Source of the DNA: Escherichia phage vB_EcoM_Lutter
Length of the DNA stretch: 64,000 nt
Direction: 5' to 3' (one strand)
Sequence record: NC_054924.1
The position numbers and the translations under genes were made by a program. Below are positions 11,110 through 64,000 of the stretch, piece after piece; within the stretch, counting starts at the first letter, position 1, and every line of letters starts with the position of its first letter. The notes below the pieces were generated by a model. The model was given only the letters and a program-made list of their open reading frames with translations, did not search any database and was not told the origin of the DNA.

Positions 11110-11124
11110 TCTTTGACGATTTAA

Positions 11125-11155
11125 GGGACCTTCGGGTCCCTTTAGTTGTTTTTAT
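11125..11155 (+). terminator. Rho-independent terminator after gene 23
   Basis: GGGACC-ttcg-GGTCCC hairpin followed by a T-rich tract. Confidence 0.75.
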
Positions 11156-11157
11156 GG

Positions 11158-11165
11158 TATAAATA
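11158..11165 (+). promoter_or_regulatory. Late promoter TATAAATA upstream of gene 24
   Basis: Exact TATAAATA 27 nt upstream of the gene 24 ATG. Confidence 0.55.
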
Positions 11166-11192
11166 AATCATATAAACCAAAAGGAAAGCGCA

Positions 11193-15910: not shown

Positions 15911-15923
15911 AATATTTCCTCAG

Positions 15924-15931
15924 TATAAATA
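15924..15931 (+). promoter_or_regulatory. Late promoter TATAAATA upstream of uvsW
   Basis: Exact TATAAATA 30 nt upstream of the uvsW ATG. Confidence 0.55.
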
Positions 15932-15960
15932 TAGATATATTTATTACATGGTATTTAGAC

Positions 15961-36516: not shown

Positions 36517-36749
36517 AGTACGCCATACACCCTTTGTGCTTCAACTAATCCATCAAAATCCAGTTTAAGATGCGATATTTGATCGCCATCGCCTGGATTC
36601 ACAATTACTAATACTGAACGAGGAGTTTCGGTAATAACACGAACCGATGTTTCAGGAAATCGTTCAGAAACCTTATTTACCAATTCCTGAGCAAATAGTT
36701 TAACTTTTTCTTGGAATTCTTTAACAGTAATTGGTTTTTCACTTAGCAT
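36513..36749 (-). CDS. Hypothetical protein (cd.2 position)
   Basis: 78 aa ORF. Confidence 0.55.
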   Translation of the reverse strand: MLSEKPITVKEFQEKVKLFAQELVNKVSERFPETSVRVITETPRSVLVIVNPGDGDQISHLKLDFDGLVEAQRVYGVL

Positions 36750-37270
36750 GTTGATCCCAGCTCCTTACTTTCAACGTTTTTAACTAATTTGACAGAAACT
36801 AATTCAGCATCTTGAGTAATCATTACCGGGCCTTCTTCATACTCTTCAAGATATTCTAGAGCTTTCTTTTTAGCTTCTTCCTTCGTATCAGTTTGAGCAT
36901 AGATATAAAACATACAACCAGTAATACCTACTACTTTCCACTTAATTTCTTTATCAGTTTTAATTTCAAATTTACTGACAGAATCATCTTTTTGAACTTC
37001 TTCGAAAAAAGAATATTCTAACATATAAGCAATTGAAAATAACGGGCTAACTTTATAAGATTCGCCCATTACATCAACAGCTTTATACCAACAATCATCA
37101 ATTTCGCGTTTAATGCTAATAACATTTTTCGCAGGATCTATTTTTACTTTAAATGAATTTTCCCCAATAAACTGGGCAATTCGTTTATTAGCCCCGCAAG
37201 TTTCATTAAAAATATCTTTATATCCAGCTTTAAAGCGATAAACCTTATCTTCTTCAAACCATTCGCTCAT
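36743..37270 (-). CDS. Hypothetical protein (cd.3 position)
   Basis: 175 aa ORF, GAGGAAA SD, early promoter upstream. Confidence 0.6.
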   Translation of the reverse strand: MSEWFEEDKVYRFKAGYKDIFNETCGANKRIAQFIGENSFKVKIDPAKNVISIKREIDDCWYKAVDVMGESYKVSPLFSIAYMLEYSFFEEVQKDDSVSKFEIKTDKEIKWKVVGITGCMFYIYAQTDTKEEAKKKALEYLEEYEEGPVMITQDAELVSVKLVKNVESKELGSTC

Positions 37271-38001: not shown

Positions 38002-39226
<1,225 letters not shown>

Positions 39227-42273: not shown

Positions 42274-43443
42274 TTAAAAATATTTTTTAAAACTCATCAT
42301 AACTTTATCATCAACATCATTATCAATCTGTGCTACAAGGTAAGATGACAGTTCTACTTCTTGCGGCGCGGATTGAACATTATCAGAATTAAGGTATTCA
42401 CGAATCCAAGGATATGGATGTTTAACCGGAGCATCGGTAATTGGGCATGGAAGACCGCACTGTTTCATACGAGATACAGTTAAGTAATCAATAAAGCTCC
42501 ACATGCTATTTGTATTTAATCCAGGAACATCACCATCTTTAAATAAATGAACTGCCCAATCTTTTTCTTGGCGGTTAACTTCCATGAAAATATCAACTGC
42601 TTCTTGTTCACACTCTTGAGCAATTTTAACCCATTCATCGCCATCAGTGCCAAGTTGAAGTTGACGAATAATATATTGAGTGCCTTTAAGGTGAAGCTGC
42701 TCATCACGTGCAATGAACTTCATAATCTTGGCATTACCTTCCATGATTTCCATATTCTTGTGGAAGTTAAAGGTACATGCGAAAGATACATAAAAACGAA
42801 TAGCTTCTAAGGCATTAATAACGTGCAAACAGAGGTAAAGAGATTTCATTAGCTCTCGTTTGGCGTATTCAACGACTTTACCAAGTTCATCTTTGCGCCA
42901 ACCTTCAGACAAAATTCCTTCGTATTCTTCTTTAGCGTTTTCCCATTCACGGGTTTTAACCAAGACATCATCGTAATATCGCCCAATGGACTCAGCACGT
43001 TTCATAATAGCTTCATCTAATACAATCTCATCAAACACCTTCGATGGATCAGTATAAAGATTTCGCATGATATGTGTATATGAACGGCTGTGAATAGTTT
43101 CACTAAAAGTCCACGTAGCAACCCATGTATCAAGGCTTGGGTCTGAAATTAATGACATAAGTACAGCAGATGGCGCGCGACCCTGAATGCTATCCAAAAG
43201 TGATTGATACTTCAGGTTATTAGTAAAAATATTCTGTTGATACTGAGGAAGTTTATTAAATTGTGCAGCATCCATCATCAAGTTTACTTCTTCAGGACGC
43301 CAGAAAAATGATAAAGATTTCTCAATAAGTTCTTCAAATACTCTATGCCGTTGAATATCATATCGAGCTAAACCCAATCCAGAACCAAAAAACATCGGCT
43401 CAGTCAAAATATTAACAGGGGATGTATTAAAAACTGTACTCAT
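42274..43443 (-). CDS. nrdB: Ribonucleotide reductase small subunit, uninterrupted (no intron)
   Basis: 389 aa continuous ORF; diiron ligand motifs; recognised as T4 NrdB. Confidence 0.95.
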   Translation of the reverse strand: MSTVFNTSPVNILTEPMFFGSGLGLARYDIQRHRVFEELIEKSLSFFWRPEEVNLMMDAAQFNKLPQYQQNIFTNNLKYQSLLDSIQGRAPSAVLMSLISDPSLDTWVATWTFSETIHSRSYTHIMRNLYTDPSKVFDEIVLDEAIMKRAESIGRYYDDVLVKTREWENAKEEYEGILSEGWRKDELGKVVEYAKRELMKSLYLCLHVINALEAIRFYVSFACTFNFHKNMEIMEGNAKIMKFIARDEQLHLKGTQYIIRQLQLGTDGDEWVKIAQECEQEAVDIFMEVNRQEKDWAVHLFKDGDVPGLNTNSMWSFIDYLTVSRMKQCGLPCPITDAPVKHPYPWIREYLNSDNVQSAPQEVELSSYLVAQIDNDVDDKVMMSFKKYF

Positions 43444-44081
43444 TTAGAATCCTTAAATTTACATTTATCATAATGCCATCTTAGAGCATTGCCTTTATTA
43501 ACCTTCTTGCCACAATGCGGACAAGGCGGATACTCTATACTTTGCTTAGTTCTCAAAGAAATCAAATCACGAGTTTCTTTAGTATGAGGAACATCTCTTG
43601 TTGGAGAGATTGTACCATACATCGGATTAAGCACGCCGACTTTAGCAGCAGCTATATTCTTTTTAGCTTCTTCGGTTTTAGGTTTTCTCATGCGAGCTAA
43701 ATGCTCTTTGGTAAATTTCCTTCCTTTAAGAGCTCTACTTATCTTTTCCCTGGTTTCTATAGAAACTTCACGTCCTATAGCAGCTTCAGATAAACGTCGT
43801 CTACCTAATTCGTATAGTTGAGAAGAAATTTTATATGAGCGATTTTTACCAGTCAAGCACATTAAACCAAAAGCTTTCTTTAATCCTGGGGTGTCATATA
43901 TTTTGCATAAAAGCCAATGAGCTATAAAATGCTCTCTACCTGTTAATTCAACTAAATTTTCTTTATCATCAGAACCTCCCATACATCTAGGGATTATATG
44001 ATGAGTCTCTTTATATTCAGATAAAGGTTCCCGAGCCTGAGCTCGGGAAATTAGGTCATTATAGATTTTTTGATAATTCAT
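43440..44081 (-). CDS. mobE: HNH homing endonuclease (MobE-like)
   Basis: 213 aa; HNH motif HHIIPRCMGGSDDKENLVELTGREHFIAHW; C-terminal CPHCGKK zinc finger; sits between nrdA and nrdB. Confidence 0.8.
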   Translation of the reverse strand: MNYQKIYNDLISRAQAREPLSEYKETHHIIPRCMGGSDDKENLVELTGREHFIAHWLLCKIYDTPGLKKAFGLMCLTGKNRSYKISSQLYELGRRRLSEAAIGREVSIETREKISRALKGRKFTKEHLARMRKPKTEEAKKNIAAAKVGVLNPMYGTISPTRDVPHTKETRDLISLRTKQSIEYPPCPHCGKKVNKGNALRWHYDKCKFKDSK

Positions 44082-46345
44082 TACAATTTACACGCTGCGC
44101 AATCATCGGCTTTTGGAGTTTCTATTTCATAATCATCAGTACCAGAACCATCGCGGGTATTATGATAATAGAAATTTTTTCCGCCAAAATACCAAAAATA
44201 CAAAAGGTCATCAATCATTATTGACATTGGAACCTTTCCTTTTGGAAAAATCTGTGGGTCATAATATGTATTCGCCGAAGCTGATTGACAAACCCATTTC
44301 AGCATAATAGCTACCTGCGTAAGATAAGGTTTATTACCTTTCTTAGCTAATTTCCATGTATAATCATAGAGGTCTATGTTATGCTCAATATTGGGCACGA
44401 CTTGATTAAAGGAGCCCTCTTTTGATTCTTTAACAGAGACTGGTCCACGTGGAGGCTCGATACCGTTTGTACTGTTAGAAACTTGGGAAGATGACTCACA
44501 TGGCATAAGTGCTGATAATGTGCTATTACGGATGCCAAAGAGCTTAAGGTCTTCCCGCAGCGACGACCAGTCACAAACGTATTTTGGAGCTGCGATTTGG
44601 TCAATCTTTTTATTGTACCAGTCGATAGGTAATTCGCCTCGAGACCAACGAGTGTCTGAATAATATTCGCAAGGTCCTTTTTCTTTGGCGAGCTTAATGG
44701 ATGCTTTAATGAGTCCATACTGTAATCTCTCAAATAGTTCATGTGTTAAATCGTTAGCATCTTCATAAGAAGCAAAGTTACTTGCCAGCCAAGCTGCATA
44801 GTTAGTAACACCTACACCAAGGTTTCGACGCTTTTTAGCTTTTTCTGCTTCAGGAACTGGATATCCTTGGTAATCCAAAAGATTATCAAGAGCACGAACT
44901 TGAACTTCTGCCAATTCATTAATTTTATCTTGGTCTTGCCAGTCAAAATTATCCAGTACGAATGCAGAGAGAGTACACAATCCAATTTCAGCATCAGGAC
45001 TATTCACATCATTTGTTGGAATAGCAATTTCACAGCACAAGTTACTCTGACGAATAGGTGCCTTTTCACGAATAAACGGAGTATAGTTATTCGTATTATC
45101 AATGAACTGCACATAAATCCTTGCTGTTCCTGAACGTTCAGTCATGAGCAATTCAAATAGTTCACGGGCTTTAATACGCTTTTTACGAATATTAGGGTCT
45201 TTTTCTGCTGCTTCGTATAATTCACGGAAACGGTCTTGGTCTTTAAAATAAGAATAATAAAGCTCGCCACCCATTTCATGCGGACTGAACAAAGTAATGT
45301 AATCGTTCTTTCCGAATCGTTCCATCATCAAATCATTCAGCTGAACACCATAATCCATATGACGAATGCGGTTTTCTTCTACGCCTTTGTTATTTTTCAA
45401 AACGAGAAGATTTTCAACTTCCAAATGCCAAATAGGATAATAAGCAGTAGCAGCGCCGCCACGAATTCCACCCTGTGAACATGATTTAACTGCAGTCTGA
45501 AAATGTTTCCAAAAAGGAATAACACCAGTATGGCGTACTTCACCCATGCCAATCTTAGAACCTTCAGCACGAATCATACCTACGTTAATTCCAATTCCAG
45601 CGCGTTTAGAAATATATTCAACAATTGAAGCAGAAGCTTTATTAATTGACTTCAATGAATCACCAGCTTCAATAACAACGCATGAACTAAACTGTCGAGT
45701 CGGAGTACGGCAACCAGCCATAATAGGAGTTGGCAATGAAATCTGTCGAGTAGATACTGCTTCATAAAAACGAATAACATGTTTTAATCTATCAACAGGT
45801 TCATCTTGATGCAATGCCATTCCAATAGTCATAAATGCAAACTGTGGAGTTTCATAAATTTGACCAGTGGTTTTATCTTTAACTAGATATTTTTCTTTTA
45901 ATTGCATCGCCCCGGAATAAGTAAATTCCATATCCCGCTCGTGCTTAATTTTTGATTCTAAAAATGTAATTTCTTCTGCTGAATATTTTGACAATAATTC
46001 AGGGTCGTATTTACCTTCATTTACACAGTAAGAAATATGGTCAATAAATGAACGTGGTTCATACTGTCCATAAACATGCTTACGAAGAGCAAACATTAAA
46101 CAACGTGCAGCTACATATTGATAATCAGGCTCTTCAACCGAAATAGAATTCGCAGCAGCCTTAATGACAATAGTCTGAATATCATTAGTTGTCATTCCAT
46201 CACGGAGATAAGATTTAATATTTTCATATAATTCATAAGGATCTACTGATGTTCCTTCAGCTGCCCAAGATAAAACTTTAATAATTTTTTGTGGGTCAAA
46301 GCTCTGAGAAACACCACTACTTTTGATAACATTAATTAATTGCAT
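44081..46345 (-). CDS. nrdA: Ribonucleotide reductase large subunit
   Basis: 754 aa; N-terminal ATP-cone; class I RNR catalytic motifs; recognised as T4 NrdA. Confidence 0.97.
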   Translation of the reverse strand: MQLINVIKSSGVSQSFDPQKIIKVLSWAAEGTSVDPYELYENIKSYLRDGMTTNDIQTIVIKAAANSISVEEPDYQYVAARCLMFALRKHVYGQYEPRSFIDHISYCVNEGKYDPELLSKYSAEEITFLESKIKHERDMEFTYSGAMQLKEKYLVKDKTTGQIYETPQFAFMTIGMALHQDEPVDRLKHVIRFYEAVSTRQISLPTPIMAGCRTPTRQFSSCVVIEAGDSLKSINKASASIVEYISKRAGIGINVGMIRAEGSKIGMGEVRHTGVIPFWKHFQTAVKSCSQGGIRGGAATAYYPIWHLEVENLLVLKNNKGVEENRIRHMDYGVQLNDLMMERFGKNDYITLFSPHEMGGELYYSYFKDQDRFRELYEAAEKDPNIRKKRIKARELFELLMTERSGTARIYVQFIDNTNNYTPFIREKAPIRQSNLCCEIAIPTNDVNSPDAEIGLCTLSAFVLDNFDWQDQDKINELAEVQVRALDNLLDYQGYPVPEAEKAKKRRNLGVGVTNYAAWLASNFASYEDANDLTHELFERLQYGLIKASIKLAKEKGPCEYYSDTRWSRGELPIDWYNKKIDQIAAPKYVCDWSSLREDLKLFGIRNSTLSALMPCESSSQVSNSTNGIEPPRGPVSVKESKEGSFNQVVPNIEHNIDLYDYTWKLAKKGNKPYLTQVAIMLKWVCQSASANTYYDPQIFPKGKVPMSIMIDDLLYFWYFGGKNFYYHNTRDGSGTDDYEIETPKADDCAACKL

Positions 46346-46616: not shown

Positions 46617-46880
46617 TTATTCACTACCCGACATAGACGGCCCGCGCGGTGATAATTCGGCATATTGTTTTTCCGTTAATACAGTAATATCGTAGTAACA
46701 GTCAGAAGAAGTTTTAACTGTGGAAATTTTATTGTCAAAATATTCACGAGTCATTGTATGAGTATAGTATTTTTTACCATAAATGATAATAGGCTGTTCT
46801 GGTCCTGGAACTTCTAACTCGCTTGGGTTAGGAAGTGTAAAAAGAACAACGCCAGAAGTATCTTTAAATCGTAAAATCAT
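46617..46880 (-). CDS. Hypothetical protein (nrdA.2 position)
   Basis: 87 aa ORF. Confidence 0.5.
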
Positions 46881-47188
46881 ATTGCCATTTTCCCTTTAAT
46901 TGCTGGATGCGATTCATAATTTTCAAGGATAAAATCTTTCGGTTTCATGTATTCAGTTAACCAGTAAAGCTGTGTTTCGGTGTCACAATTTCCAAACTCT
47001 ATAGGCCAATCAATTTTAAGTTCACACAGTTCTTTAGGCTCACGACGTAAAATTTCTTTACATTGCTCAGTATGATTCATATAGATGTGAGTATTACCAC
47101 CAGAAAATATCAAATCTCCTGGGATAAGATTACACATCTTAGCCACAATATGTGTCAAGGCAGCGTACGAGGCAATGTTGAACGGTAG
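46877..47188 (-). CDS. td: Thymidylate synthase, exon 2
   Basis: Exon begins CTACCGTTC (LPFNIASY...) directly after intron 3' end CATAATG; with exon 1 gives 286 aa. Confidence 0.9.
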
Positions 47189-48204
47189 CATTATGTTCAG
47201 ATAAGGTCGTTAATCTTACCCCGGAATTATATCCAGCTACATGTCACCATGCAGAGCAGACTATATCTCCAACTTGTTAAAGCAAGTTGTCTATCGTTTC
47301 GAGTCACTTGACCCTACTCCCCAAAGGGATAGTCGTTAGGCATTTATGTAGAACCAATTCCATTTATCAGATTTTACACGATAAGTAACTAATCCAGACG
47401 AAATTTTAAAATGTCTAGCTGCATCTGCTGCACATTCAAAAATAACCCCATCACATGAAATCTTTTTAATATTACTAGGCTTTTTACCTTTCATCTTTTC
47501 TGATATTTTAGATTTAGTTATGTCTGAATGCTTATGATTAAAGAATGAATTATTTTCACCTGAACGATTTCTGCATTTACTACAAGTATAAGCAGAAGTT
47601 TGTATGCGAACACCGCACTTACAAAACTTATGGATTTCTGGATTCCAACGCCCATTTTTACTTCCGGGTTTACTGTAAAGAGCTTTCCGACCATCAGGTC
47701 CAAGTTTAAGCATCTTAGCTTTAACAGTTTCAGAACGTTTCTTAATAATTTCTTCTTTTAATGGATGCGTAGAACATGTATCACCAAACGTTGCATCAGC
47801 AATATTGTATCCATTAATTTTAGAATTAAGCTCTTTAATCCAAAAATTTTCTCGTTCAATAATCAAATCTTTCTCATATGGAATTTCTTCCAAAATAGAA
47901 CATTCAAACACATTACCATGTTTGTTAAAAGACCTCTGAAGTTTTATAGAAGAATGGCATCCTTTTTCTAAATCTTTAAAATGCCTCTTCCATCTCTTTT
48001 CAAAATCTTTAGCACTTCCTACATATACTTTATTGTTTAAAGTATTTTTAATCTGATAAATTCCGCTTTTCATAAATACCTCTTTGAATATAGAAGTATT
48101 TATTAAAGGGCAGTCCTACAATTTAGCACGGGATTGTCTACTAGAGAGTTTCCCCGTTTAGATAGATTACAAGTATAAGTCACCTTATACTCAGGCCTCA
48201 ATTA
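47189..48204 (-). mobile_element. Group I self-splicing intron in td (1016 nt) carrying I-TevI
   Basis: 5' end TAATTGAGGCCTGAGTATAAGGTGACTTATACTTG after exon GGGT; 3' end CATAATG; both ends as recalled for the T4 td intron. Confidence 0.92.
47336..48073 (-). CDS. I-TevI: I-TevI GIY-YIG homing endonuclease (intron-encoded)
   Basis: 245 aa; GIY-YIG motif GIYQIKNTLNNKVYVGSA; C-terminal zinc finger and DNA-binding domain; recognised as T4 I-TevI. Confidence 0.93.
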   Translation of the reverse strand: MKSGIYQIKNTLNNKVYVGSAKDFEKRWKRHFKDLEKGCHSSIKLQRSFNKHGNVFECSILEEIPYEKDLIIERENFWIKELNSKINGYNIADATFGDTCSTHPLKEEIIKKRSETVKAKMLKLGPDGRKALYSKPGSKNGRWNPEIHKFCKCGVRIQTSAYTCSKCRNRSGENNSFFNHKHSDITKSKISEKMKGKKPSNIKKISCDGVIFECAADAARHFKISSGLVTYRVKSDKWNWFYINA

Positions 48205-48753
48205 ACCCAAGAAAACATCTACCGAACGTTGATACCACTGCAAATCCAAATAACCATTACGCACATTAAACTGATAGAACATATGACAGGGCGGTAATGC
48301 CATTTGATTGATTTCAGCTGGATTCCATGCTGAAACGATTTGACGTCGATCAGTTGGTAATTTTTTAATACGATCAATAGTTTCAACTAATTGATCCACA
48401 CCACCGAAATCACGCCATTGTTTACCGTATATAGGACCAAGTTCACCACTATGATATCCTAGGTCTTTAGCTTGGTTTTCATAATTGTCATCCCAGATAG
48501 TTTTACCTTGAATAAGACTACCGTGAGTAAGAAGACGTAAATCATTAACATTGGTAGAACCGGAAATAAACCATAGAAGCTCAGCAATGCATGCATTCCA
48601 GGCGAGCTTCTTAGTTGTTACTGCAGGAAAACCTTTAGTTAAATCCCATCGTAATTTAGTACCGAACAAAGCAATTGTTCCTGTGCCCGTTCGGTCATCG
48701 GTTTCATAGCCATTTTCAAAAATGTCTTTAATTAAATCTTGGTATTGTTTCAT
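48205..48753 (-). CDS. td: Thymidylate synthase, exon 1
   Basis: 183 codons ending ...VDVFLG with terminal U before intron; TS active-site motif PPCH. Confidence 0.93.
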
Positions 48754-48798: not shown

Positions 48799-49146
48799 TC
48801 AATACGGTTTAGCATCAAATTTTCTCTCAATTTCAGGTGTGAAATATAATTCTTTACCGCGTTTGGAAAAGCGACCAATAATATGATAATTATTCTCATC
48901 AAACGTGATATTACCAATATCCATAGCTTTCAACCAAATATCGATATTTCTATCCAGCTTTATGTCAAAATTCCAATACGGAGAACTATTACCGAAAATA
49001 CTACAAGCGGATTCAGTGAAACAGCTACTATAAATCTTGTCTTTAGGAACTACTAATTGATAGACACCTTTAATAAACTGAGGACCTTGCCATTTTGGCT
49101 GTTTCTCGTCTTTTTCTAATAGAATAGGGTAATAATTAAAATTCAT
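48799..49146 (-). CDS. Hypothetical protein inserted between frd and td
   Basis: 115 aa ORF with ATG start occupying a gap where frd and td overlap in T4. Confidence 0.6.
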   Translation of the reverse strand: MNFNYYPILLEKDEKQPKWQGPQFIKGVYQLVVPKDKIYSSCFTESACSIFGNSSPYWNFDIKLDRNIDIWLKAMDIGNITFDENNYHIIGRFSKRGKELYFTPEIERKFDAKPY

Positions 49147-49165: not shown

Positions 49166-49986
<821 letters not shown>

Positions 49987-52068: not shown

Positions 52069-52140
52069 TTTTATTTCCTTTTTAATTTAATTAACAGTTG
52101 GTGCTATGACGATGTATGACCTCATAGCTGGTCAGTGAGA
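52069..52140 (-). promoter_or_regulatory. Gene 32 mRNA leader (site of the gp32 translational operator)
   Basis: About 70-nt AT-rich untranslated leader between promoters and the gene 32 ATG. Confidence 0.4.
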
Positions 52141-52142
52141 TA

Positions 52143-52167
52143 ATTATAATCTATTTATAATAAGCAA
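52143..52167 (-). promoter_or_regulatory. MotA-dependent middle promoter with overlapping late TATAAATA, upstream of gene 32
   Basis: Minus strand TTGCTTA (MotA box), 12 nt, TATAAT; the spacer itself contains TATAAATA (52152..52159). Confidence 0.55.
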
Positions 52168-60163: not shown

Positions 60164-63100
60164 ATGGCTACTTTAAAACAAATACAATTTAAAAGAAGCA
60201 AAACCGCAGGTGCACGTCCTGCTGCTTCAGTATTAGCCGAAGGCGAATTGGCTATAAACTTAAAAGATAGAACAATTTTTACTAAAGATGATTCAGGAAA
60301 TATCATTGACTTAAGCATTTCCGCTGGCGGTAATATCAGTGGAAATATCACTCAAACTGGTGATTATACACAGACTGGAAAATTTAATTTAATTGGTCCA
60401 CAAATTGTAGCAAGTGGTGGATATATTGAGTTTAATTATCGTACTACTGGAAGTGGGGCTTGGTCCGGTCAACACACTGCAAAAGCTCCAATTTTTGTAG
60501 ATTTAAGCTCAGCTACTTCCACATCTGAATATAATCCTATAATTAAACAGCGCTTTAAAGATGGAACTTTTTCATTAGGTACTTTAGTTTCTGAAGGTTC
60601 GTTAAAGATTCATTATATTGATGAAACTGGTCAATCTAAATATTGGACATTTGCGCGCTCAGGTAATTTTCAAGTTGATTCTGGTAATTTATTAGTATCT
60701 GGTGGGTATTTAGTCGCTCAGAGTAATATTGAAACAAGAACAGGTTCTTTGATTGGTCCATCTGTTGTAACTAAAAATATTTCATTTGATACGAAAGCGT
60801 TTGGACAATATGATTCGCAGTCATTAGTTCAATATGTTTATCCTGGAACTGGTGAAACAAACGGAATTAATTACCTTCGTAAATTCCGTGCAAAATCCGG
60901 TGGTACGATTTATCATGAATTAGCTTCTGCACAAACCGGAAAAAGTGATGAACTGTCTTGGTGGACCGGTAATACAGCCGTTAATAAACAAATGGGCCTT
61001 CGCAATGATGGGTCTTTAGTATTGCGACGCTCACTCGCAATTGGTACAATTACAACAGATGAAAACATTAATAATTACGGCTCCACTGGAGCAATGGGTG
61101 AATGCTATATAGTCATTGGAGATGCCGCAACTGGTATATCATATAAAAGATCTGGTGTATATGATTTAGTTGCTAATGGTCTTTCTATCGCGTCTATTAC
61201 TCCTGACAGTTTCCGTAGTACTCGTAAAGCATTATTTGGACGCTCAGAAGATCAAGGTACAACATGGATTATGCCTGGAACGAATGCTGCATTTTTATCA
61301 GTTCAAACACAGGCTGATGAAAACGGTGCTGGAGACGGTCAGACACATATTGGCTATAATTCAGGCGGAAAAATGAACCACTATTTCCGCGGCAAAGGCA
61401 AAACTAATATTAATACTCAAGAAGGCATGGAAGTTAACCCGGGTATTCTTAAAATAGTAACCGGTGCAAATAATGTAATGTTTTATGCTGATGGCGGTAT
61501 TACATCCACTAAGCAGCTTTCAATATATAATGGTGTATATTTAGCAGCTAATAATTCTACTGCTGGGCTAACATTCGCTCCAACTACTACAGTTGATGGC
61601 ACTAAGCAAATTTTGTGGGAAGGTGGTAAGCGCGCTGGACAGAATAAAAGCTATGTAACTGTTAAAGCGTGGGGTAATTCATTTAACGCATCTGGCGATC
61701 GTAATCGTGAAACAGTTTTTGAAGTAGCTGACGGACAAGGTTATTATTTTTATGCGCAGCGTGTAGCTCCTGCATCAGGTTCAACAACTGGAGTAATTCA
61801 ATTTAGAATTGCTGGAGCATTATTAACCGGTGGGGGTATTACATCATCAGGTTCTATTGTTACTGAGTCAAGTTTAGTTGCAAATAATGGATTGTCTGTA
61901 AATGGACAAGCTAAATTTGGTGGAACAGCAGATGCATTAAGAATTTGGAATGCTGAATACGGTGCTATTTTCCGCCGTTCGGAAACTAACTTTTATATTA
62001 TTCCAACTTTACAAAATGCTGGAGAATCGGGCGGTATAAGTAATTTACGCCCATTTACCATCAATCTCGCAAATGGTAGTGTTATGATGGGCAATCATAC
62101 ACAAGCCGGAAAAAATTTGCTTACTATTGATAACGTATCAAAATTCGTTCAAACCGATGTTAGACTTCGAGTTAATATGGATTCTGACGCTATTGTGGTA
62201 AATGCTTCATCTCAAGCTGCATCTAACTTTATTCAAGGACGTAAGGCTGATGTTACAAAATGGTATTTAGGTATTGGCGATGGCGGAAACGTCGTTCGTA
62301 TGCATAATTACACCTACTCTCACGGTATTGCATTAAACTCTGATACTGTCGATATTACTAAGCCTCTTAAAATTAATGATATTCGAATTGGTACAGATGG
62401 TAACATCACAGGTGGTACTGGTAATTTTGCTAACTTAAATACAACGTTAAATCGTAAAACCAGCGTGGGCGGTTGGGCTGGTAGTTCTGTTGACGGATGG
62501 TATAAATTTGCTACGGTAACAATTCCTCAGGGTACTGGTACAGTGACTTTTAAGATTTCCGGCGGCGCTGGTTTTAATTTTAAAAGCTATAGCCAAGCTT
62601 CTGTTGCAGAAATAGTTCTTCGCACGGGTAATAATCCTAAAGGCATAAACGCTGTACTGTGGAATAGGTCAGACCTGAGTTTTAATCAGATAGCTACTAT
62701 GAATACATCTGGCGATACTTATGATGTATACGTGTTCTGTGCCGGTTATACAAATGCATTAGTGGTTGAATATTCCTGTAGTGAAAACTCTTCGGTAACC
62801 GTAGTCGGTCTTAACGGAGGCATTCAGCCAGTTGTTGATGCATTGCCTGAGGGACATGTTGTAGGTAAAACAGTTCGTCTGTTAAATAATATTGGCGGAA
62901 CTTTCGCAGCTGGAGAATCTAACATTGTTACTCGCGGTGAATACGTTACTGATAATCAAAAAGGCATGCGTATTAAATCTAACGGTAATAATATCGGTTC
63001 TAACGCAGCTTTAATTAGAAATGATGGCGGAAGTTTTTATATTTTAGCTACAGATAAAAATACGGAAGAAAAACCCGATGCAGCTAATGGTGATTGGAAT

Positions 63101-64000
63101 GGCTTAAGACCTTTCTCTATTAATATGACTGATGGCCGCGTTAGTATGAACCACGGGTTGAATATTACTGGCGGTGGATTAAACGTTACTGGTGGTAATA
63201 CTAGCTTAGGTAATATCTCGTCTCGTTTGGTTTCATACGCCCGCGCGCCATCTGGATGGGGAGATACCTCAGATGCCATGAAATCTAAAATCACCTTTAT
63301 GGCAGACCACGGGGATTTATCTAATTCAGACAGTTATTATCCTATTGTCGGTGCATACAGCAACTATGGTTCAGCGGGTTATCGTCAAACATTTGAATTT
63401 GGATGGGTCGGCTCTGGTACCACCGCTGGATGGCGAGAAGGTATTATTCGTATTCGCGGTGATAATGCTAATGGCCAGCAAGCAAGATGGCGATTTACAA
63501 TGGATGGTATTTTAGATTGCCCGGGTAAAGTACAGATGCCACAAACAAGCGCATTTGGCGTCAATACAACAAATGGATGGGGTGGTAACTCCATTGCAAT
63601 TGGTGATAGCAATACTGGTTTTAGACAAGTAGGCGATGGGCTTTTAGAAGCGTGGGCGAACAATGTTAAAGTTGTTAGATTCACCTCAGGTGAAGTTTAT
63701 TCCGAGAAAAACGTTAACGCTCCTAATGTTTACATTCGTTCTGATGTTCGCTTGAAATCTAATTTCAAACCTATTGAAAACGCGCTCGAAAGGGTTGAGC
63801 AACTTGATGGTTTAATCTATGATAAAGCTGAATATATAGGCGGTGAGCCTGTTCAAACTGAAGCGGGTATTATAGCTCAAACGTTGCAAGACGTTTTACC
63901 AGAAGCTGTCCATGAAACAGAAGACAGTAAGGGTAATAAAATACTCACTGTTTCTTCTCAAGCCCAGATTGCTCTTCTGGTTGAAGCTGTGAAAACACTT
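60164..64000 (+). CDS. 37: Long tail fiber distal subunit gp37 (3' end beyond window)
   Basis: ATG at 60164; open frame of 1279 codons to window end with no stop; N-terminus MATLKQIQFKRSK... as T4 gp37; SDVRLK motif near the window end. Confidence 0.9.
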   Translation, partial: MATLKQIQFKRSKTAGARPAASVLAEGELAINLKDRTIFTKDDSGNIIDLSISAGGNISGNITQTGDYTQTGKFNLIGPQIVASGGYIEFNYRTTGSGAWSGQHTAKAPIFVDLSSATSTSEYNPIIKQRFKDGTFSLGTLVSEGSLKIHYIDETGQSKYWTFARSGNFQVDSGNLLVSGGYLVAQSNIETRTGSLIGPSVVTKNISFDTKAFGQYDSQSLVQYVYPGTGETNGINYLRKFRAKSGGTIYHELASAQTGKSDELSWWTGNTAVNKQMGLRNDGSLVLRRSLAIGTITTDENINNYGSTGAMGECYIVIGDAATGISYKRSGVYDLVANGLSIASITPDSFRSTRKALFGRSEDQGTTWIMPGTNAAFLSVQTQADENGAGDGQTHIGYNSGGKMNHYFRGKGKTNINTQEGMEVNPGILKIVTGANNVMFYADGGITSTKQLSIYNGVYLAANNSTAGLTFAPTTTVDGTKQILWEGGKRAGQNKSYVTVKAWGNSFNASGDRNRETVFEVADGQGYYFYAQRVAPASGSTTGVIQFRIAGALLTGGGITSSGSIVTESSLVANNGLSVNGQAKFGGTADALRIWNAEYGAIFRRSETNFYIIPTLQNAGESGGISNLRPFTINLANGSVMMGNHTQAGKNLLTIDNVSKFVQTDVRLRVNMDSDAIVVNASSQAASNFIQGRKADVTKWYLGIGDGGNVVRMHNYTYSHGIALNSDTVDITKPLKINDIRIGTDGNITGGTGNFANLNTTLNRKTSVGGWAGSSVDGWYKFATVTIPQGTGTVTFKISGGAGFNFKSYSQASVAEIVLRTGNNPKGINAVLWNRSDLSFNQIATMNTSGDTYDVYVFCAGYTNALVVEYSCSENSSVTVVGLNGGIQPVVDALPEGHVVGKTVRLLNNIGGTFAAGESNIVTRGEYVTDNQKGMRIKSNGNNIGSNAALIRNDGGSFYILATDKNTEEKPDAANGDWNGLRPFSINMTDGRVSMNHGLNITGGGLNVTGGNTSLGNISSRLVSYARAPSGWGDTSDAMKSKITFMADHGDLSNSDSYYPIVGAYSNYGSAGYRQTFEFGWVGSGTTAGWREGIIRIRGDNANGQQARWRFTMDGILDCPGKVQMPQTSAFGVNTTNGWGGNSIAIGDSNTGFRQVGDGLLEAWANNVKVVRFTSGEVYSEKNVNAPNVYIRSDVRLKSNFKPIENALERVEQLDGLIYDKAEYIGGEPVQTEAGIIAQTLQDVLPEAVHETEDSKGNKILTVSSQAQIALLVEAVKTL

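Follow-up and report, generated by a model that had tools for sequence, protein, structure and literature searches.

A T6-type mobE gene, probably encoding an active homing endonuclease, between nrdA and an intronless nrdB in Escherichia phage vB_EcoM_Lutter

The 213-codon open reading frame between nrdA and nrdB, the genes for the two RNR subunits of Escherichia phage vB_EcoM_Lutter (NC_054924.1), is, as judged from its sequence, a T6-type mobE, very probably the gene for an active, self-immune, free-standing homing endonuclease of T4-like phages. It lies in a Tequatrovirus segment of 64,000 nt, which is the whole stretch of DNA that was analysed (the window) and whose gene order is colinear with that of T4. 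None of this is new: a description of the T4 gene with its locus, regulation and likely mechanism dates from 2009, and a protein identical to the present one has been deposited. The result serves mostly correct annotation, and it confirms that the T6-type allele has retained everything that marks a functional MobE (motif, overlap, terminator and linked target-site sequence).

The gene between nrdA and nrdB and its protein

A sequence-only reading of this DNA had proposed a mobE-like free-standing HNH endonuclease gene between nrdA and nrdB that overlaps the nrdA stop. Pfam matches to HNH and NUMOD3, the TAATG junction and the homology to mobE all bear this out. The three genes and the parts of the MobE protein discussed below are:

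44081-46345, minus strand: nrdA, RNR large subunit, 754 aa (open reading frame; Pfam ATP-cone, Ribonuc_red_lgN and Ribonuc_red_lgC; colinear with T4 nrdA)
43440-44081, minus strand: mobE, T6-type allele, free-standing HNH/NUMOD3 homing endonuclease gene, 213 codons (Pfam HNH and NUMOD3; PHROG 655)
42274-43443, minus strand: nrdB, RNR small subunit, 389 codons, uninterrupted (open reading frame; Pfam Ribonuc_red_sm)
43908-44012, minus strand: HNH catalytic core of MobE, residues 24-58, KETHHIIPRCMGGSDDKENLVELTGREHFIAHWLL (invariant residues; motif alignments; AF2 model)
43542-43775, minus strand: NUMOD3-type helical repeats, residues about 103-180 (Pfam NUMOD3; helices in the AF2 model)
43461-43523, minus strand: C-terminal zinc-finger-like motif C187-x2-C190-x12-H203-x3-C207 (residue conservation)

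In the junction sequences the nrdA stop and the mobE ATG overlap by one base (TAATG), and the mobE TGA overlaps the nrdB ATG (ATGA). NrdA and NrdB both contain the RNR domains expected from Pfam, and NrdB is identical to the spliced T4 NrdB at 361 of 388 residues. The nearest deposited genome is that of VEc20, with 97.5% identity across 24 kb; none of the deposited genomes is identical to the window overall.

The 213-aa protein agrees at every residue (100%) with one deposited for vB_EcoM_KAW1E185; it is 98.1% identical over 213 aa to the annotated T6 mobE product and 71% identical to T4 MobE (E 9e-119), and it matches PHROG 655, 'homing endonuclease', with E 1e-66. Chance resemblance is no concern, the gene being by sequence a full-length homologue of a known one (E about 1e-140). 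The Pfam scores exceed the curated cut-offs both for HNH (24.4 versus 21.4 bits) and for NUMOD3, which lies downstream of the nuclease domain (34.5 versus 20.4 bits).

The HNH motif, whose loss on careful alignment was to have counted against the sequence-only reading, is intact: H27, H28, N42, H51 and H55, and also E25, are invariant in an alignment of 41 homologues. Residues 1-55 differ from T4 MobE only in having G48 for A48 (54/55 identical). A PDB sequence search aligned the core, marginally (E 0.2-0.6), with HNH motifs in McrA and in a group II intron maturase; these are motif-level matches, which helped to place the catalytic residues and are no proof of family membership. The AF2 model has a strand-strand-helix unit at residues 24-61 with a pLDDT of about 95, and searches with the fold of the whole model gave no significant match. 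The NUMOD3 repeats are presumed to be a DNA-binding linker, and the N-terminal part of this region falls into the cassette that differs from T4 MobE. C187, C190, H203 and C207 of the zinc-finger-like motif are each at least 90% conserved among the 41 homologues.

Seven mobE alleles, all intact and of equal length, show a dN/dS of 0.08-0.19, which suggests that the gene is maintained by selection. Several public genomes, those of VEc20 and SHFML-26 among them, annotate a 180-aa product beginning at an internal ATG, the same DNA encoding the full 213 codons; the shorter product is without the two catalytic histidines.

The layout of mobE next to an intronless nrdB is found in T6 and in about 35 other deposited phages, most Tequatrovirus records having a spacer of about 50 nt between nrdA and nrdB without mobE, a patchiness typical of mobile genes. 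In other genera, too, this gene occupies the nrdA-nrdB interval, namely in Gaprivervirus P479 (77%) and in Acinetobacter phage Mokit (60%).

Regulatory signals, the nrdB nick region and the proposed course of homing

Two regulatory signals lie inside mobE, and the counterpart of the region nicked by T4 MobE lies early in nrdB:

44018-44049, minus strand: hairpin in the mobE 5' end, 9-bp stem and 4-nt loop, followed by CCUUUAUCU; predicted intrinsic terminator attenuating transcription (terminator scan)
43609-43633, minus strand: candidate MotA-dependent middle promoter for nrdB in the mobE 3' region, TGCTTAA, 12 nt, TACAAT (regular-expression match)
43313-43330, minus strand: nrdB nt 114-131, corresponding to the stretch of T2 nrdB in which MobE nicks, CTTATTGAGAAATCTTTA (comparison with T2)

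The hairpin, which has a U-rich tail and folds at −16.7 kcal/mol (z −3.0), is identical in sequence in the window and in T4. For T4, 3' ends were mapped to it and 30-50% termination was measured, and a terminator hairpin in the 5' coding end has been reported for all mobE carriers (PMC2790892). The overlap UAAUG of nrdA stop and mobE start has likewise been described for T4 (PMC2988022). The candidate middle promoter is shared by the window, T4 and T6; we infer that it is the one reported for the mobE 3' region of T4 (PMC2790892). A change from TGCTTTA to TGCTCTA near 43473-43479, considered as weakening an nrdB middle promoter, was dropped, since no TAnnnT −10 element lies at a distance from it that would suit a Mot-box promoter; the candidate at 43609-43633 is better spaced.

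T4 MobE nicks T2 nrdB at nt 122-126 (PMC2790892), which correspond to 43318-43322 of the window. Within nrdB nt 114-131, 10 of 18 nt differ from T2, as compared with 61 of 477 (13%) in the rest of the first 495 nt (Fisher p 3e-5). All six of the T6-type mobE phages compared have exactly this haplotype, while six of seven mobE-less phages are T2-like here (0-3 differences). The seventh, RB33, has a partly carrier-like region (7 differences), so that the haplotype is not strictly diagnostic. Codon 42 of nrdB in the window is AAA, and the sequence coding for FFWRPEE is intact, in line with the report that nrdB of mobE carriers is polymorphic at the nick region (codon 42 AAG, AAA, CGG or CGA) with FFWRPEE conserved (PMC2790892). 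T4-type phages read GAG CGG CAG ATC AGT at this place and T6-type phages GAG AAA TCT TTA TCA, and in both allele classes the divergence from mobE-less phages is densest exactly at the region nicked by T4 MobE. The mobE-linked sequence is presumably nick-resistant, and our small comparison of haplotype with mobE presence supports the published idea of self-immunity via target-site polymorphism. The linkage could, however, stem from co-conversion (hitch-hiking) instead of selection for immunity.

The following course of events is modelled on T4 MobE, except that the overlap, the hairpin, the nrdB substitution cluster and its linkage to mobE are seen in the window itself. Having no promoter of its own, mobE would be transcribed together with nrdA, which would supply promoters and the upstream reading frame, and the UAAUG overlap suggests a weak, coupled translation. 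The hairpin 30 nt into the gene would stop part of the transcripts, and nrdB would then be transcribed from the middle promoter within the 3' part of mobE. When a mobE-less relative infects the same cell, MobE would bind the conserved FFWRPEE-coding stretch of the relative's nrdB and nick the non-coding strand of that gene near nt 122-126 (codon 42). The mobE-carrying genome would serve as the template for recombinational repair, through which the recipient would acquire mobE together with flanking markers. The phage that carries mobE would itself be spared by the dense substitution cluster at its own nick region. Because nrdB is intronless in this phage, MobE would mobilise only itself and its flanks, without the passenger intron that it has in T4. 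HNH-dependent, strand-specific nicking of nrdB and super-Mendelian inheritance have been demonstrated for T4 MobE only, where deletion of residues 33-62 abolished nicking and lowered inheritance; cutting in vitro was never demonstrated even there, and the authors allow for action through another nuclease (PMC2790892).

The empty intron site and the endonuclease genes of the region

The other selfish elements present in or missing from this part of the genome are located as follows:

42776-42777, minus strand: empty site at which nrdB of T4 and RB3 carries its group I intron, TCTTTCGCAT^GTACCTTTAAC, within Cys codon 223 (three-way alignment; junctions compared)
47189-48204, minus strand: td group I intron, 1016 nt (T4 splice junctions; 99.4% identical to the T4 intron)
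47336-48073, minus strand: I-TevI, 245 aa, within the td intron (Pfam GIY-YIG, I-TevI zinc finger, I-TevI DNA-binding domain)
11110-11192, no strand: 83-nt gap between genes 23 and 24, segD absent (list of open reading frames; blastn leaves T4T 106501-107288, segD, unmatched)
15911-15960, no strand: 50-nt gap between inh and uvsW, segE absent (list of open reading frames; T4T 112056-112690, segE, unmatched)
52069-52167, no strand: 99-nt gap between genes 32 and 59, segG absent (list of open reading frames; T4T 147931-148555, segG, unmatched)

As proposed from the sequence alone, nrdB is one continuous frame of 389 codons. In a three-way alignment with genomic T4 nrdB and T6 nrdB the 598-nt T4 intron is missing, the gap following nrdB nt 667. 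The sequence-only reading had suggested an alignment with the T4 nrdB exons for finding the empty site; the present one placed it at 42776-42777. A permissive Rfam scan gave no group I signal in nrdB. In the same permissive run the core of the td intron was picked up below threshold (Intron_gpI, E 6e-6), and a match to L20_leader (E 0.39) was set aside as chance. At the gathering threshold Rfam had no matches between 40 and 50 kb, and the td intron, too, was missed. The td intron with its I-TevI, the second element that had been claimed, is present with T4 junctions, and its endonuclease is identical to T4 I-TevI at 243 of 245 residues.

The claim that the 23-24 and 59-32 gaps hold no endonuclease open reading frames stands, both gaps being free of any open reading frame, as does the length of 99 bp for the latter; the 23-24 gap is 83 nt long, not 84. 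The contention that the complement of selfish elements is reduced relative to T4 is right for the window and was even understated: with segE missing too, two of the six T4 homing endonuclease genes of the corresponding region are present. T4, however, with its 15 homing endonuclease genes, is a known exception among T-even phages (PMC2790892), and since it is the outlier, the smaller complement is the norm. The complement was also called distinct, which is true in so far as the mobE allele is T6-type and not T4-type; the window yielded no endonuclease foreign to T4, and the open reading frames at 36743-37270, 38906-39226, 48799-49146 and 49744-49986, which are insertions relative to T4, had no Pfam match.

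Alternative readings and comparison with known systems

It is improbable, if the least so of the readings that depart from a T4-like MobE, that the T6-type protein has another target than T4 MobE or only lends specificity or regulation to another nuclease; the nick at codon 42 would then not carry over. The replaced central cassette, 19 residues shorter, speaks for it, as do the different nick-region sequences of T4-type and T6-type phages and the indirect role left possible by the authors of the T4 work (PMC2790892). However, the nuclease domain (54/55) and the last 84 residues (82/84), which include the zinc-finger-like motif, are nearly identical to those of T4 MobE, and in both allele classes the divergence peaks where T4 MobE nicks, which suggests a common target. 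We consider it unlikely to a higher degree that mobE is a domesticated, immobile resident, kept for the signals that regulate nrdB (an internal promoter and an attenuator balancing nrdA and nrdB) or for a role beneficial to the host phage such as the exclusion of competing phages. A terminator and a candidate Mot-box promoter are indeed conserved inside the coding sequence, loss of mobE would, according to Wilson and Edgell, be selected against on account of the promoter embedded in it (PMC2790892), and purifying selection is compatible with any function at the protein level. Regulatory signals alone, however, would not hold dN/dS at about 0.1 over 213 codons with invariant catalytic residues, patchiness among near-identical phages and presence at the same locus in distant genera form the pattern of an actively spreading element, and marker exclusion is no alternative to homing, the two being expressions of one activity.

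The idea of a decaying, pseudogene-like remnant, as I-TevIII is in T4, has next to no probability left and was rejected: the frame is full-length and of equal length in seven phages, the conserved residues have all been retained and dN/dS lies far below 1. Defunct endonuclease genes do occur at the same locus in T4 and some public records annotate only the 180-aa product, but the latter reflects the choice of an internal ATG in DNA that encodes all 213 codons. An extension of the active-endonuclease reading is conceivable, though we do not expect it to hold, namely that T6-type and T4-type mobE alleles are functionally distinct competitors with allele-specific immunity, one type nicking the nrdB of the other. 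The two have the nuclease head and the C-terminal finger in common and differ in the central DNA-binding cassette, each with its own linked nrdB nick sequence. If this were true, alleles of one and the same homing endonuclease would stand in a hierarchy or an arms race, and RB33, which lacks mobE and has a partly carrier-like site, could be a resistant escapee.

Among known systems the closest to the active T6-type MobE favoured here are the genes of T6 (MH550421.1), KAW1E185, VEc20, Ge15, JEP6, slur02/04 and others, which encode the same 213 aa with 98-100% identity. These carriers share the position, the overlaps, the intronless nrdB and the nick-region sequence, and their 0-4 amino-acid differences are of no substance.

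A different endonuclease of 243 aa occupies the same locus in G50, G9062 and P922. Its first approximately 60 codons, including the start of the HNH domain, are common with mobE, whereas its C-terminal 180 residues are unrelated, close relatives carrying Pfam NUMOD1, to which the MobE of the window has no Pfam match. Where MobE nicks, nrdB of the G50-type carriers resembles that of T2 (0-2 differences), so this endonuclease presumably has another target. We take it to be possibly the Hef of phage U5 of Sandegren et al. 2005 (as cited in PMC2988022), whose study is said to have been the first survey of the nrdA-nrdB locus.

I-TevIII, which is full-length in RB3 and SHFML-26, truncated in T4 and absent from the window, is like MobE an HNH nuclease that targets nrdB and ends in a C-x2-C...H-x3-C finger of the same type. 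Unlike MobE it is encoded by a group I intron, has 269 aa and has its site at nrdB nt 667 rather than at nt 122-126. The MobE finger aligns to the last finger of full-length I-TevIII with a best local E of 5e-4 over 28 residues; with a similarity this marginal and a continuous nrdB, the window frame does not qualify as I-TevIII or another intron-encoded nrdB endonuclease. I-HmuI and I-HmuII of Bacillus phage, which are intron-encoded, combine an N-terminal HNH domain, an extended linker and DNA-binding modules and nick in a strand-specific manner (PMC2790892; PMC2988022). They resemble MobE in this layout and are unrelated to it in sequence at the level tested: the PDB sequence search with MobE did not return I-HmuI at E up to 1, and the whole-model fold searches had no significant match.

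The MobE of T4 (232 aa; PMC2790892) shares with that of the window the locus, the UAAUG overlap, the identical internal terminator and the nearly identical HNH domain and C-terminal part. The difference lies in the centre, the linker/NUMOD3 region, where 74 residues (about residues 56-129) replace 93 of T4. This centre being diverged and 19 residues shorter, target spacing or specificity could differ from those of T4 MobE. The nick-region sequences of the two nrdB genes also differ, and whereas T4 nrdB carries the defunct I-TevIII intron, which MobE mobilises in trans, nrdB of the window has no intron to mobilise.

Locus and identity of the endonuclease gene

The sequence-only reading had placed a free-standing, mobE-like HNH gene between nrdA and nrdB, overlapping the nrdA stop. 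The locus is organized as follows:

44081-46345, minus strand: nrdA, 754 aa, RNR domains as expected (Pfam)
43440-44081, minus strand: mobE of the T6 type, 213 codons, HNH and NUMOD3 domains (Pfam)
42274-43443, minus strand: nrdB, 389 aa, RNR domains as expected (Pfam)

At the nrdA/mobE junction, TGTAAATTGTAATGAAT, the final A of the nrdA stop TAA is the first base of the mobE ATG; at the mobE/nrdB junction, TCTAAATGAGT, the mobE stop is overlapped by the nrdB start (ATGA), and denA starts 3 nt past nrdB. The 213-aa protein scores 24.4 bits for HNH (cut-off 21.4) and 34.5 bits for NUMOD3 (cut-off 20.4) in Pfam and matches phrog_655 of PHROGs, "homing endonuclease" (E 1e-66). Its sequence agrees fully (100%) with that of the homing endonuclease of vB_EcoM_KAW1E185 (exact or 99-100% copies are found in dozens of contigs). 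Identity is 98.1% to the annotated T6 mobE, which shares its 213 codons, both overlaps and an nrdB without intron, and 71% to T4 MobE (232 aa; E 9e-119). The proposed position, overlap with the nrdA stop and mobE-like assignment are all borne out by these data. Judged by its sequence, the protein belongs to the MobE family, showing all defining features examined at that level; the finding is correct and already known.

Two other identities were considered and rejected. I-TevIII, the endonuclease of the T4 nrdB intron, is like the window protein only in a finger motif, and the window gene is not intron-encoded. A third endonuclease, of 243 aa, occupies the same slot in phages G50 (L006 1500-2231), G9062 (L017) and P922 (L018); it starts with an HNH part as MobE does, and has only the first ~60 codons in common with it, the C-terminus being unrelated. 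The nrdB of these carriers is T2-like at the region nicked by MobE, and therefore the target of the G50-type enzyme is presumably different. This enzyme could correspond to "Hef" from phage U5.

The difference from T4 MobE is confined by abrupt borders in the DNA alignment: residues 1-55 (54/55) and the last 84 residues (82/84) are nearly identical, and 93 diverged residues stand in T4 where the window protein has 74 central residues. As read from this alignment, the difference is modular, a cassette-type mosaicism that is usual for homing endonuclease genes. It appears rather unlikely that the T4 and T6 types, whose central cassettes and linked nrdB sequences are not the same, have different specificities and are in competition.

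The T6-type protein is found at ≥95% identity in ~35 phage records, and the whole nrdB-mobE stretch gives 55 matches. Of the 665 records matching the nrdA/nrdB flanks, a spread sample was examined: some three quarters of it show nothing but a ~50-nt spacer, without endonuclease, and the remainder carry the T6, the T4 or the third type. Gaprivervirus P479 has the same gene in the nrdA-nrdB interval at 77% identity, and so does Acinetobacter phage Mokit, of a different subfamily, at 60%. It should be noted that the annotations of VEc20 (L014 1767-2309) and SHFML-26 (L007 3266-3808) take an internal ATG as start; the resulting 180 aa lack residues 1-33, among them the two catalytic histidines, and the DNA encodes 213 codons overlapping the nrdA stop.

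Integrity and expression signals of mobE

An HNH motif found broken on alignment had been named beforehand as evidence against the assignment; the motif proved to be intact. In an alignment of 41 homologues reaching down to ~35% identity, E25, H27, H28, I29, P31, G36, N42, H51 and H55 are invariant, C187, C190, H203 and C207 reach a conservation of 90% or more, and the motif ETHHIIPRCMGGSDDKENLVELTGREHFIAH can be aligned to the HNH motifs of group II intron maturase and McrA. A T4 mutant deleted for residues 33-62 has lost nicking (PMC2790892); the counterpart of these residues in the window protein is almost unchanged. In the AlphaFold model (mean pLDDT 86.6), residues 24-61 form two strands and one helix; beyond them come further helices in a row and, at the C-terminus, a finger. 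Searching for similar folds with the complete elongated model gave just weak local HNH matches. All seven mobE alleles compared are full length, with dN/dS of 0.08-0.19 against the window allele, values at which MobE is to be regarded as under purifying selection and not decaying.

In T4, mobE is promoterless and co-transcribed with nrdA, its translation is probably coupled via UAAUG, the gene is attenuated by an intrinsic terminator 27 nt past its start, the nrdB middle promoter lies within its 3' part, and its inheritance is super-Mendelian (PMC2790892, PMC2988022). The window has the stop-start overlap of the T4 type and two further elements:

44049-44018, minus strand: hairpin in the mobE 5' end (terminator scan), 9-bp stem, 4-nt loop, CCUUUAUCU tail
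43633-43609, minus strand: Mot-box-like element, TGCTTAA, 12 nt, TACAAT, with correct spacing

The hairpin (-16.7 kcal/mol, z -3.0) has every base in common with T4. In the P479 allele (L020 1480-1560) a hairpin at the same position has another stem, CCCGGG...CCCGGG, and the same CCTTTA tail; that the bases changed and the pairing was kept argues for selection on the structure itself. The Mot-box-like element is a candidate nrdB promoter and is conserved between the window and both T4 and T6. By analogy, the window mobE would likely work as in T4, with co-transcription, coupled translation, attenuation and homing.

Nick region and intron site of nrdB

T4 MobE nicks T2 nrdB at nt 122-126, within a nick region taken as nt 114-131 (window 43313-43330), and nrdB nt 100-162 were compared in 17 phages. 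All six T6-type carriers, the window included, have one common sequence, CTTATTGAGAAATCTTTA, at nt 114-131, in which 10 of the 18 nucleotides are not those of T2, as against 61 of 477 in the rest of the first 495 nt (Fisher p 3e-5). The T4 sequence is a separate variant (9 differences), and of the seven phages without mobE six resemble T2 there (0-3 differences). The neighbouring block that codes for FFWRPEE is conserved throughout the phages compared. Codon 42 of the window nrdB is AAA, one of four codon-42 variants listed for mobE carriers (PMC2790892). According to the published model, the DNA-binding part would recognize the conserved block and the nuclease would fail on the carrier's own polymorphic site; the comparison supports this self-immunity model, short of proof. 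We infer activity, nick position and immunity of the T6-type MobE by analogy. In RB33 (L011 552-1051), which is mobE-less, the nick region is partly carrier-like, with 7/18 differences from T2 and with K-S-L at codons 42-44; this phage may once have carried mobE or may have a resistant escape allele.

The claim of an intronless nrdB held when aligned with T4: the 598-nt intron is missing after nt 667 (window 42777|42776), the empty site lies within Cys codon 223, TCTTTCGCAT^GTACCTTTAAC, and the gene is one 389-aa ORF whose product is identical to spliced T4 NrdB at 361/388 positions. No group I signal was found in nrdB even at permissive Rfam filters. In SHFML-26 and HY03 this T6-type mobE occurs together with a full-length I-TevIII intron, and therefore the intronless state is one among several known combinations. 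About 150 nt upstream of the insertion site, a short hypervariable segment of varying length (NrdB residues ~171-197, window ~42860-42935) is completely different among the window (as VEc20), T4/T6 and T2, the rest being 93-99% conserved.

Endonuclease complement compared with T4

The window comes from a Tequatrovirus (T4-like) genome and is colinear with T4T from gene 15 to gene 37, most blocks being 90-98% identical (blastn). Among deposited genomes there is none identical to it, Escherichia phage VEc20 coming closest (97.5% over 24 kb). From gene 37 onward (60310-64000), the distal tail-fibre region is ~71% identical to T4 or unaligned, and therefore vB_EcoM_Lutter has a receptor-binding tip unlike that of T4. 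Four small ORFs lie in segments without T4T counterpart:

36743-37270: 175 aa, between cd.2 and cd.3
38906-39226: 106 aa, between pseT and pseT.1
48799-49146: 115 aa, between td and frd
49744-49986: 80 aa, next to frd

Pfam found no domain in these four ORFs, and thus no non-T4 endonuclease in the window-specific insertions. The td intron and three gaps complete the comparison:

47189-48204, minus strand: td intron, junctions as in T4
23-24 gap: 83 nt, T4 segD unmatched
32-59 gap: 99 nt, T4 segG unmatched
15911-15960: inh-uvsW gap, 50 nt, T4 segE unmatched

The td intron was present with I-TevI (243/245 identical to T4 I-TevI), as had been claimed. Intron and I-TevI together are 99.4% identical to T4, exon 1 (48205-48753) 86% and exon 2 (46877-47188) 71%, and the Td C-terminus is largely unlike T4. 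By these identities, the intron looks far younger than the td gene around it, as is characteristic of recent homing.

The sequence-only reading had rightly seen the 23-24 gap (put at 84 nt) and the 59-32 gap as free of endonucleases and had not listed the segE gap. It had further called the complement reduced and distinct. Six T4 endonuclease genes lie in the matching region (segD, segE, defunct I-TevIII, mobE, I-TevI and segG), and the window has two of these and lacks four. "Reduced" thus stands across the 64 kb; "distinct" holds for the mobE allele and not otherwise. The smaller set is expected because T4, with 15 homing endonuclease genes, is described as unique among T-even phages (PMC2790892).
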